NCBI GenBank assembly: GCA_050298055.1
Contig: JBNKTL010000035.1
Span: 1 to 50,904 of the forward strand
Length of the DNA stretch: 50,904 bases
Direction of reading: 5' to 3'
Source: Spirochaetota bacterium
GTDB taxonomy: Bacteria > Spirochaetota > UBA4802 > UBA5550
A model generated the notes under the pieces. The model did no database searches. It was not told the origin of the DNA and saw only the letters and a program-made list of their open reading frames with translations. The translations under genes were made by a program, and so were the position numbers. Shown piece after piece: positions 44,417-47,400 of the stretch. The stretch's first letter is position 1; each line of letters opens with the position of its first letter.

Positions 44417-47400
44417 ATGAAAAGGTTTGTCTATGGTTTAACGATTTTTCTGTCACTGGCGGCTGCCGGTATGTTAATGACCGGCTGCGGAGGCGGCAAC
44501 CGGGACGCGGGAAAGGTCCTCACGGTTGAGGAGGTTGATCCCGGGGACGTGACCGGCGGCAGCGGTACGGACAGCGGTACAACGGTGACCGACGGTACAG
44601 GAGCAACGGGAGATTCCGGTGACGGGACGCTTCACCCAATGTTTTCACGGATGCTGGGGGTTCCCATTTCCAATACATCCAGCGGTATTATTGATCCCGA
44701 CCCCACGGGGCATACGGCAAACACCGATTATGACGGTGACGGAATACCCAATGCCCATGAGATCGTTTCCAATCCTTATGTTGCCGACTACCCGAGAATA
44801 GTGACCCGGGTCTCTGCCCCGATAACCATGGAGATAAGGATCAGTTACTCTTCGGTATCGGACAACCACACGGAGACCATTGAAGATTCCGGTGTGAAAG
44901 ACACCATCTCAAACAGCATGGAGGACAGGCAGTATACCCAGGCAAATGAGAAAACAACCCCCTATGTGACCAAGGAGAGCTATGAAAAGAGCGGAAGCCA
45001 TTCCGAATCATTCGGTGATACTGAAACAACATCCAGAAGCAGCGGCGGTTCGGTAAATTTCGGGGGATTCGGAGGAAGCGCGAATTCATCACGGACTAAC
45101 ACCACAAGCCATAATGAGAGCGTATCCAACTCATTTTCCAATTCCGCCATGTCTGAAACCACTGTTTTTGAAGATGTGGACTATATAGACAATCTCTCAC
45201 GGAACGGCGTTGAGTTCACCAACGATACCGTGGAGACCATGTCCCAGAACTTCAGGAAAAGCGAGACCCTGAAGAACACCGAGAACATCGGTCCCAACGA
45301 CGGGGTGGTGAGGGCGGCCCTCTTCCTGAAAAACGAAACAGTTAATATGCCGGTGAAGATCTCCAACGTGATCTGCACCCTGACCTTCAGGACCCCGGCG
45401 GGTGAGTTTCTCCCGGTAAAGACCTTTAAACTCCGTAACGAGGACTACTCCGAGTTCAACCAGAGCATCTACGGGAACGAGGAGCTGGGACCCTATACAA
45501 TCGAGGTCGCCAACCTCAACACCTACGAGGTGATGAAGGCCCTGGAGAACGGCTATATCCCCCAGATCCACGTGGTGAGCTATGACATGCATAAGGTGGA
45601 AGACTCCAACTACAATCCGGGCGTCGAAAACCTCAAGATCATTGAAGAGACAGCCAAGGGGAGGACCGCCCTGATCAAGATCGCGGGCACCAATCTCCGG
45701 GAGACCTACCGTGTTGCGGCCTTTGACGTGAATGAGAATGGCGACCTGATACCGGGGATATCCCTGAAAAAGGCCCTTTTTAATATTCTCAGAAGCAAAA
45801 CAGGGGGCGGCGAACAGTGGAGCGAAAATCCACTTACCGTGGATGACGACGGACTGAAGTGGAAACCGGGGAGCGCGGACCCGGACAACTATGTCTTTGC
45901 CGACGATATCGAAGGTAACTCATGGGACAAGTTTGAGACCTACGTGAAGACCTATACCGACGAATTCAACGTTGATCATAAGATAGAGACAATAAAAAGG
46001 ATCGGGGAACTTCAAAAGTACAATCCCTTTAATCCCAAGGACAACCCGTCGTATAACCCCAACGAGCTCCTCAGCGAGACCGAGATCAACAAGATGAAGT
46101 ACTGGATCATTTACCATAACGGCAGGTATTTTAACGGGGACATCAACGACCCCATATGGGCCGGGGAGCGCTATGAGATCGTCTGTATCGACATCAAGGA
46201 CTTCAACGAACACTTCCAGGGCTATACCTATACCCCCATCCAGTCCCTGGAGACCGTCTATCTCGACACACGGTGGAACAGGCTGAATAACGCCGGACCC
46301 TTTGACCGGTCCACATACCTGGGAAAGATCATTAAAGGGGACGTTATTCACCTGGAGGTTGACCTCCTGAAGTCCCGGTCTCTGTTTAATTCCTCATCGG
46401 CGGGGGCAAGCTACCAGCTGGATACGGTAAACGATCTCCACCTCTGGAATGATGATGACTTCAAGTATACCTTCCAGTCCGGGGATGAGTATGTTGACGG
46501 GATCCCCGGCGAATTTTCCCATATGGCAACAGGGGGGACCAATAATATCACGGTCTCCATTGACGAGTCCCAGTACGCCCAGTGGTACGAGATCGTTTTC
46601 GGGGATGCGGGCGCTTCAACGGACACCTGGAAGAAAATACTGGTCTCAAGTGAAGACCTGTCAAAGAATAACGGCAAAGTGAGGATTACGCGAAACAGTA
46701 TTGATACGGAAAGCAATCCCGTGGGTAAAATCGAGGGAGGCATCACCTACAGGGTGAATGTGAGGGCCCACGGGTCTGTTTACGGGGTGGATGTGTCATC
46801 GGGCAGTGTTGCCAATAACCACACCGGTTCCCTGACTCTTGTTGAAGAGGCACAGGCGGGCACGCTTCCCGGAGAGTTTTTCTACAGTACCTCCGGGCTC
46901 CTTAACAGCATTGACGTGAGGATCGCGGAAGGAACAAATACCGAGTACTATATCATCGAATACCAGGGTCCCTTCAACTATGACACGGGGGGAGGGGACC
47001 CGCCGGTTGTGACACAGTACGGGTATCCCGGTGTAAACAGCATCGTCGTGGAGAACCCTTCTGGCGAGATCGTCAATCCCGGGGTTTACAGGATTAATGT
47101 CTACGCGGTCAATAACAACAACATGGGCAGCGGCATGGCATCGTCAACCGGGGAAAAGTATGTTCTTGTGAGTTACGAGAGGTACCGTGACCAGAAGGTC
47201 TACTCTCCTGTGGTACGGAGCGACCTTGAAAGCATGGATTCCATCGACCTGGAGGTGAATTTCAACGACGGCAGCGGCTGGTACCGGCTGAAGCTCTCGG
47301 ATTTTGATACGGGACCACAGTCCATAGACTGCAGGTACACCAGCTACGTGGAGTATGACAAGCAGAAGTTCCATCTCTTCTTCAGGGTCCCCGACGGAAC

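Follow-up and report, generated by a model that had tools for sequence, protein, structure and literature searches.

The window analysed here is a stretch of 50,904 nucleotides of contig JBNKTL010000035.1 (assembly GCA_050298055.1) from a Spirochaetota bacterium. It carries on its + strand a gene (44417..48853) for a 1478-amino-acid (aa) lipoprotein of the LIC12048 type, the core of which, according to a structural model and to profile comparison, has the domain 2/3 fold of PA63, the pore-forming part of the anthrax protective antigen (PA). This gene is inherited together with that of a large RHS protein that has the layout of a polymorphic toxin. By our reading, which we hold to be slightly on the probable side, the lipoprotein would form a PA-type beta-barrel pore, tethered to the cell, through which the RHS toxin is delivered, in the role of TcA for TcB-TcC. 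The first-pass annotation of this DNA, made from the sequence alone, had proposed a tethered pore former; because of the coupling to an RHS polymorphic toxin, this becomes a probable toxin-delivery pore.

The PA63-like core and its departures from PA63

The open reading frame (ORF) runs from an ATG at 44417 to a stop at 48853, and the interval first assigned to the protein (44417..45800) covers just its first third. The gene is real and conserved; the contigs of a related strain show 24 differences from the ORF, 20 of which are synonymous. One contig of this strain skips or replaces parts of 48463-48812, i.e. the C-terminal tail varies even there. The following parts can be distinguished.

44417..48853, +: whole gene, 1478-aa LIC12048-like lipoprotein with a PA63-like core according to the model
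44417..44488, +: signal peptide and lipobox with Cys24, predicted from the sequence (heuristic lipobox)
44489..44623, +: Gly/Thr/Asp-rich tether, residues 25-69, with a conserved LxxExV motif
44624..44725, +: conserved folded N-terminal extension, residues 70-103, too short for PA14
44726..44809, +: domain 1' remnant, one Ca-binding loop (104-115) nearly abutting the domain 1'/2 junction motif (119-131)
44792..45313, +: stem segment P126-R299 (174 aa), with a Ser/Thr-rich hairpin (184-249) and a Gly/hydrophobic tip (213-218)
45302..45595, +: domain-2 Ig-like core, residues 296-393, with the phi-clamp loop probably deleted at residues 363-368
45602..45670, +: near-invariant family-specific segment, residues 396-418, which may serve as a docking or oligomer surface
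45659..46198, +: domain-3-like beta-grasp domain carrying an insertion, residues 415-594
46217..47746, +: beta domain split in two (about 601-693 and 925-1110) by the insertion of two FN3 domains (about 695-921)
47759..48850, +: additional FN3 repeats (about 1115-1320), then a variable C-terminal domain, the candidate target-binding part

The structural evidence comes from an AlphaFold2 model of residues 70-640 built with 30 sequences (predicted local distance difference test, pLDDT, 68, and under 50 for residues 157-272; predicted template modelling score 0.62). With this model, the 39 rows shown by Foldseek are all binary-toxin B components (best E 1.2e-11, 9-14% identity). Over 48,161 chains, the first places in VIA-align go to PA, Ib, CDTb, Vip1 and C2II (PA pore: Z 13.1, 275 residues aligned, root mean square deviation (rmsd) 5.2; best unrelated chain: Z 8.2). 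At the profile level, the comparison of 139 homologues with PA and 10 relatives gives a probability of 83% and a score of 52.4, 25 column shuffles scoring at most 26.2. When 14 blocks were scanned without gaps against PA and its 10 relatives, five found the expected PA segment as their best match, in collinear order (102-116 on PA175, z 7.0; 119-131 on PA253, z 6.5; 296-306 on PA358, z 4.0; 428-437 on PA500, z 3.4; 446-458 on PA519, z 5.2), the other nine matching differently or out of order. The Ca loop and the domain 2/3 positions are nearly invariant in the family.

The searches that rely on sequence or on single profiles gave no such match. Neither BLASTP to PA nor single-sequence hhalign to PA alone is significant, Pfam PF03495 (Binary_toxB) reaches 12.5 bits on a fragment (cut-off 25, E 0.17) and PF17475 has no match at the pore locus, its positive control being detected. 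Likewise, none of the Pfam models Binary_toxB, _2 and _3 exceeds its cut-off in 30 aligned family members, phmmer and hmmsearch against the PDB match FN3 only and no toxin, and the ESM Atlas gives no usable match to the pore protein.

The motifs from which a PA pore core had initially been proposed are all present in the ORF (lipobox Cys24, Ca motif 104-115, NPYVADYP 119-126, Ser/Thr stem centred on 213-218, strand 296-306, 417-437 and 446-455). Their pairing with PA goes beyond chance, as the five blocks hit the very PA segments named at that time, in the same order. The proposed fold itself is borne out by the Foldseek, VIA-align and profile comparisons, the matches of the AlphaFold2 model being confined to pores of the PA/CDTb/Ib/Vip1 type. 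The reading of the Ca motif as a generic Ca-binding repeat was discarded, since the motif is present once and the fold match spans 250-275 residues. The predicted lipid anchor holds across the family (heuristic lipobox in 144 of 167 full-length homologues), as does the lack of a PA14/PA20 pro-domain: the distance from the Cys to the Ca motif is 52-104 residues in 144 homologues, and the query has no PA14 hit and no RxK/RR protease site. The description of this stretch as only a Gly/Thr/Asp linker has to be amended, as it consists in the query of a 45-residue tether, which includes the LxxExV motif, and of about 34 conserved folded residues (70-103, pLDDT about 80).

Three further parts of the core depart from PA63. 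Domain 1' is mostly missing: E115 to P126 comprise 12 residues (12-22 in the 139 homologues), whereas the equivalent stretch is 68-77 residues long in 11 PA-family sequences, and the pore protein keeps only the first Ca loop. In CDTb and Ib, domain 1' binds the A component (PMC11359772). The segment holding the stem is longer, with 174 aa in the query and 146-229 aa in its family versus 85-100 aa in the PA family. All 139 homologues keep between invariant anchors a Ser/Thr hairpin with a Gly/hydrophobic tip, the sequence and length of which vary freely. In the model, this hairpin is formed by 185-199/234-248 with low pLDDT, and at the sequence level the alternation expected of a stem has a mean z of 1.1 and exceeds that of shuffles in 113 of the 139 homologues.

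The third departure concerns the phi-clamp, whose Phe could not be found by eye in the first-pass annotation. The loop is quite probably deleted, as four of five global profile alignments place a gap of 8-10 residues opposite the PA loop, the fifth being fragmented. Against this stands a low-confidence hhalign alignment that pairs L357 (F in 50% and L in 31% of the family) with F427, at the cost of a 15-residue gap in the domain core. A Phe is lacking at the clamp position of BecB (L050) and of four Bacillus PA-family proteins (L051-L054), which sets a precedent for clamp loss in the known PA family. A conserved R-N-x-D-aromatic-S loop (45434-45457, residues 340-347; D 93%, aromatic 82%) may correspond in position to the lumen-facing K397 loop of PA and could be a substitute constriction.

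Outside the core, Pfam detects only fn3 in the pore protein, with about four FN3 domains. The split beta domain into which two of these are inserted is modelled with pLDDT 87, and both fold-search lists for 601-693/925-1110 are filled by FN3 matches.

The family comprises 227 homologues of the 1478-aa protein (E <= 0.001, among 7998 scored candidates), those with names being hypothetical proteins of Spirochaetota and the Leptospira 'LIC12048 family lipoprotein'. The best-matching stretch to NCBIfam NF038383, the model of the LIC12048 family, is 53-457 (E 4e-100); the score of 336 bits is under the equivalog cut-off of 700. The two share the lipobox, the core (70-650, about 33% identity) and the same downstream RHS gene, whereas the C-terminal two thirds of the query are largely different. 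HMMER against 1.84 billion representatives yields 119 matches, those named elsewhere being LIC12048-type family members, and a profile search of proteins of 278-1028 aa yields 13, all family fragments, none with a listed Binary_toxB domain. The family is carried on 51 Leptospira plasmid records, and no relative was found in phage records or viral contigs. A truncated paralogue lies elsewhere in this genome (contig C10:36272-37315, L099; 347-aa open frame, 38% identity to residues 136-450). It lacks the signal peptide, the Ca loop and the C-terminal domains, adjoins a PIN-like remnant and looks like a decayed second copy of the pore gene. At six loci (L006, L013, L090, L093, L112 and L113), pore genes stand in tandem pairs upstream of a single RHS gene, which may give rise to hetero-oligomeric rings or to alternative target specificities.

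The RHS partner and its coupling to the pore gene

Loci were retrieved from 40 of the 83 match places outside the window (one of these 83 rows being a paralogue remnant in this genome), and 39 of them hold the pore gene by BLASTP. The gene of an SpvB/RHS partner lies within three genes downstream, on the same strand, in 26 of the 39, is not adjacent in 11 and is cut by contig ends in two; eight of the 11 genomes with non-adjacent genes carry the partner elsewhere. An annotated Leptospira plasmid illustrates the arrangement: behind the pore gene come the gene of a 2534-aa SpvB/RHS protein, a further small one and orphan modules of RHS.

In a survey of 401 genomes, from which this genome and a weak hit (G126) are excluded, partner-type RHS proteins were defined by a genome-best E <= 1e-102 (all others >= 1e-36). 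The pore gene was found in 54 genomes, the partner-type RHS in 50 and both in 48; two more of the 54 pore-positive genomes show the start of a partner at a contig end (50 in total). In one spirochaete family (f15), the same 30 of 75 genomes hold both genes, and 19 others hold only weakly matching SpvB/RHS genes. Copies that have become separated keep matching branches in the two FastTree phylogenies (the sisters G334/G183, G233, and G073/G263), and the match between pore and RHS holds within genera and between paralogues. A mirror-tree correlation of 0.73 over 34 linked pairs (permutation maximum 0.33) was set aside, as linkage and kinship produce it.

The partners contain SpvB, FG-GAP, TcdB midN and RHS domains, a DPxG site and a variable tip. 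A lipobox was found in 30 of 34, and the propeller is 57-74% identical across loci. The 38 tips, two of which are mis-cut owing to frameshifts, form 28 clusters; among the 36 submitted to Pfam, four score above the cut-off (Ntox10, HNH GH-E and C39 twice) and two below it (EHHH and M23). The genes that follow the partner include those of Ank, SH3, LRR and SUKH proteins, and a signal-like start was found in 11 of 13 of these followers outside Leptospira and in three of 19 within Leptospira. By its domains and gene order, this is a polymorphic toxin-immunity layout, with putative toxicity and immunity; the targets are therefore most likely bacteria. Across the 39 loci, no dedicated immunity gene was seen after the pore gene.

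Other delivery components were also sought. The one TcA domain searched (PF18276) is found in none of the 401 genomes, and markers of type VI secretion systems (T6SS), VipB (PF05943) and VgrG-type (PF05954), in none of five, the controls being detected in both cases. For an enzymatic A component, PF03496 matches none of five genomes (a search whose control gave no signal) and PF07737 has one sub-cut-off match, the neighbours being partly scanned. The predicted complex of a pore core (556 aa) with a propeller (380 aa) from one related locus, as single copies, scored 0.00, which is uninformative either way.

Some loci deviate from the common arrangement. Some partners have extra N-terminal domains (L063:8229-16679 and L003:12580-17785), and the pore and RHS genes of L003 are separated by those of a 253-aa protein and of an FN3-rich lipoprotein. 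A pore and RHS pair also occurs outside Spirochaetota, in a SAR324 genome bin (L010, JANQGZ010000065.1), where both transfer and mis-binning are possible.

In the window, the pore gene is followed by three features.

49087..49932, +: 281-aa exported protein, with homologues after the pore gene in 8 of 39 loci
50206..50595, +: four-helix-bundle (23S rRNA IVP-like) gene among short repeats
50628..50904, +: first part of the partner SpvB/propeller/RHS lipoprotein, truncated at the contig end

The 281-aa protein has no Pfam hit and appears outer-membrane beta-barrel-like from its C-terminal pattern. The four-helix-bundle gene is probably an inserted passenger. Runs of short imperfect repeats (49930-50205 and 50590-50625) flank it in opposite orientation on its two sides, and a contig of one run joins 50122 back to 43500. 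A DUF4160 and DUF2442 gene pair, which we take to be toxin-antitoxin-like, lies directly upstream of the pore gene (43434-43932).

The partner presumably continues on another contig (C72:1-6295), the first codons of which correspond to partner residue 643 and which encodes the C-terminal 1865 aa with the tip and the immunity gene. No contig of two runs bridges the gap between the end of the window and C72, and the assembly lacks the middle of the partner (about residues 100-640). The tip has 216 aa and no Pfam hit; its follower has 227 aa, a signal peptide and an SH3 domain. The pattern of Cys, His and Asp, together with an Atlas match to DUF261 (score 0.87, under 0.9, a lead only), suggests a papain/C39-type peptidase. 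The tip being peptidase-like and the immunity protein having both a signal peptide and an SH3 domain, the toxin is probably aimed at the periplasm or the cell wall. After the immunity gene, C72:6714-11793 (L098) contains, by eye, an HTH regulator, a 756-aa primase/helicase-like ORF and three integrase-like ORFs, which suggests that a mobile element adjoins the toxin locus. This genome also encodes a second, generic SpvB/RHS protein (C8:14987-20866). It has 1959 aa and a signal peptide, is about 25% identical to the partner type and has no PA-like neighbour among the ORFs listed. Farther upstream in the window, 20009-24898 encodes a 1629-aa protein in which an alpha-amylase-like domain is fused to a starch/glycogen synthase.

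Proposed mechanism and rival explanations

The following model can be drawn for the delivery of the toxin, in which pore formation, oligomeric state and binding are all presumed. Both proteins would be exported as lipoproteins and held at the cell surface by linkers of about 45-80 residues. The pore protein would assemble into a PA-like ring without proteolysis. In the PA topology, the N-terminus is at the cap, so an N-terminal anchor would keep the ring on the producer with its stem pointing outward. The FN3 array, which sits where PA has its receptor-binding domain, would bind the target cell together with the C-terminal domains, and the hairpins would zip into a barrel across the outer membrane of the target. 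The RHS cocoon would then dock by its propeller and release its self-cleaved, already unfolded tip through the channel, kin being protected by the product of the downstream gene. As cocoon cargo is, according to the title of PMC11067744, delivered already unfolded, neither domain 1' nor the clamp would be needed, and the threading of an unfolded tip would explain the loss of both the A-component docking domain 1' and the phi-clamp. That Leptospira and related spirochaetes thus possess an undescribed two-lipoprotein system of contact-dependent injection into a diderm neighbour, made of a protease-free, clamp-free PA-type pore and a docked RHS cocoon, seems to us an evenly balanced proposition.

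Several observations weigh against delivery through such a pore. The similarity to PA is remote (about 12% identity; in the top Foldseek rows, a TM of about 0.3 and an rmsd of about 30 A over the full model) and the stem is modelled at pLDDT under 50. The genomes surveyed are kin, so the counts are inflated and do not represent independent events. Four pore-positive genomes that are 85-95% complete (G278, G346, G349 and G143) have no partner, and two partner-positive genomes lack the pore gene. Many SpvB/RHS proteins occur without such a gene, so cocoons can work otherwise. No fused pore-RHS protein was found among 2860 candidates of 2588-5000 aa, which is a weak test. The Leptospira tips include nucleases with mostly cytoplasmic followers, which calls for an extra inner-membrane step that the model leaves unexplained. 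Without a clamp or a pH gradient, it likewise leaves unexplained the force that threads the tip, and what holds the ring in its prepore state.

The tight coupling would also be accounted for if the ring acted in or on the outer membrane of the producer, exporting, displaying or holding the 250-kDa RHS lipoprotein, with the toxin entering its target otherwise. The lipid anchor that keeps the protein on the producer and the loss of the clamp and domain 1' would fit as well. However, a folded cocoon does not fit through the narrow barrel of a PA-type pore, target binding suits the variable FN3/lectin-like C-terminal region, and the N-terminal anchor combined with the PA topology would direct the stem away from the producer; we judge such a helper unlikely. 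A pore that kills by leakage on its own (like Vpb4 or BECb alone), its targets being bacteria, protists or, in Leptospira, host cells, with the RHS gene merely co-inherited on one competition island, appears rather improbable. The absent clamp would imply a wider, leakier channel, some genomes have no partner, the Leptospira plasmid records mentioned above carry the family, LA_1761-1764 lie within an excisable 54-kb element of strain Lai (PMC5348505) and the neighbouring LA_1765 is on a list of putative virulence genes (PMC3789758). Against it stand the one-to-one co-occurrence, with trees that match even after the genes separate, the fact that no dedicated immunity gene was seen after the pore gene and the frequency of the family in environmental spirochaetes. 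It is very improbable that the protein is a degenerate PA fold acting as a surface adhesin or scaffold without membrane insertion. The protein has lost the pro-domain, most of domain 1' and probably also the clamp, there are about four FN3 domains and the stem sequence is very variable; yet every sampled homologue keeps the Ser/Thr hairpin and its Gly/hydrophobic tip between invariant anchors, and there is hardly any variation in the Ca loop and at the domain 2/3 positions.

Known systems and significance

The pore protein shares with the binary toxin B components (PA63, CDTb, Ib, C2II, Vip1/Vpb1 and Vpb4) the domain 2/3 folds, the first Ca loop, the position of the stem and the order of the motifs. 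It differs from them in being a lipoprotein without an activation domain, in the reduction of domain 1' from about 70 to 12 residues, in the probable absence of the clamp loop, in its longer stem segment (174 versus 85-100 aa), in its FN3 array and in its diderm spirochaete host; in addition, its downstream partner is an RHS protein and not an enzymatic A gene. It would thus work like a binary-toxin B pore, yet by the features that define this family in the accessible part of PMC11359772 it is not a member.

LIC12048 itself (LA1762/LA1764) adjoins the Rhs gene LIC12047 (LA1765/LA1766). In the portions of the literature available, it is a predicted outer-membrane lipoprotein without a domain, the transcript of which was seen in Leptospira. 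PMC5406399, as far as accessible, predicts no domain and gives a poor model, and the accessible text of PMC2387172 assigns neither domain nor function; the RHS neighbour was called a putative virulence gene for its likeness to SpvB (PMC3789758).

Like the Tc (ABC) toxins, the system includes a fused TcB-TcC-like cocoon with a self-cleavage motif and a variable tip. Unlike them, it showed no TcA domain in the PF18276 search, both parts are lipid-anchored and the proposed channel is a beta-barrel, whereas that of TcA is a helical needle. Putative immunity genes are present beside the spirochaetal RHS partner, whereas none are identified for Tc loci in the accessible part of PMC7861908. The partner has the layout of the TcdB/TcaC class of polymorphic toxins, with which it shares the signal peptide, SpvB, propeller and RHS domains, variable tip, immunity gene and orphan modules. 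This class, described with a signal peptide, SpvB, an integrin-like propeller and RHS, is listed for spirochaetes (Zhang et al. 2012, PMC3482391); in the text available, TcdB is the sole associated component named, and 'protective antigen' and 'Leptospira' occur 0 times. The T6SS Rhs effectors and contact-dependent inhibition (CDI) are contact-dependent and involve cognate immunity. The proposed system would have this logic in common with them, together with the RHS cocoon, but no VipB or VgrG-type gene was found in 5 of 5 genomes and the partner N-terminus carries a lipobox and SpvB, not PAAR.

No paper was found that makes a connection between LIC12048 and the PA fold, or between RHS toxins and a pore of the PA type; the supplements of PMC3482391 and PMC5406399 could list the neighbourhood. 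As far as this literature search reaches (subscription journals being mostly outside it), the pairing of a PA-type pore with an RHS cocoon is undescribed; the parts are known folds and the pairing is the new element. Should the two genes be coupled for a reason other than delivery, the finding shrinks to a variant of the binary-toxin B fold.

PA-type pores are described in Bacillus and Clostridium as soluble, protease-activated B subunits for animal-directed enzymes (PMC11359772), and LIC12048, its function not being known, has been put forward as a vaccine candidate (PMC5406399). The LIC12048 family, which occurs in 30 of the 75 genomes sampled from one spirochaete family as well as on 51 plasmid records of Leptospira, gains a fold, as modelled, and a probable function. 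The locus offers a concrete, testable answer to how one class of TcB-TcC-like RHS toxins that lack both TcA and a T6SS enters target cells. If this answer is true, the PA fold would have an interbacterial role outside Firmicutes and the TcA-less RHS class would get its missing translocon.

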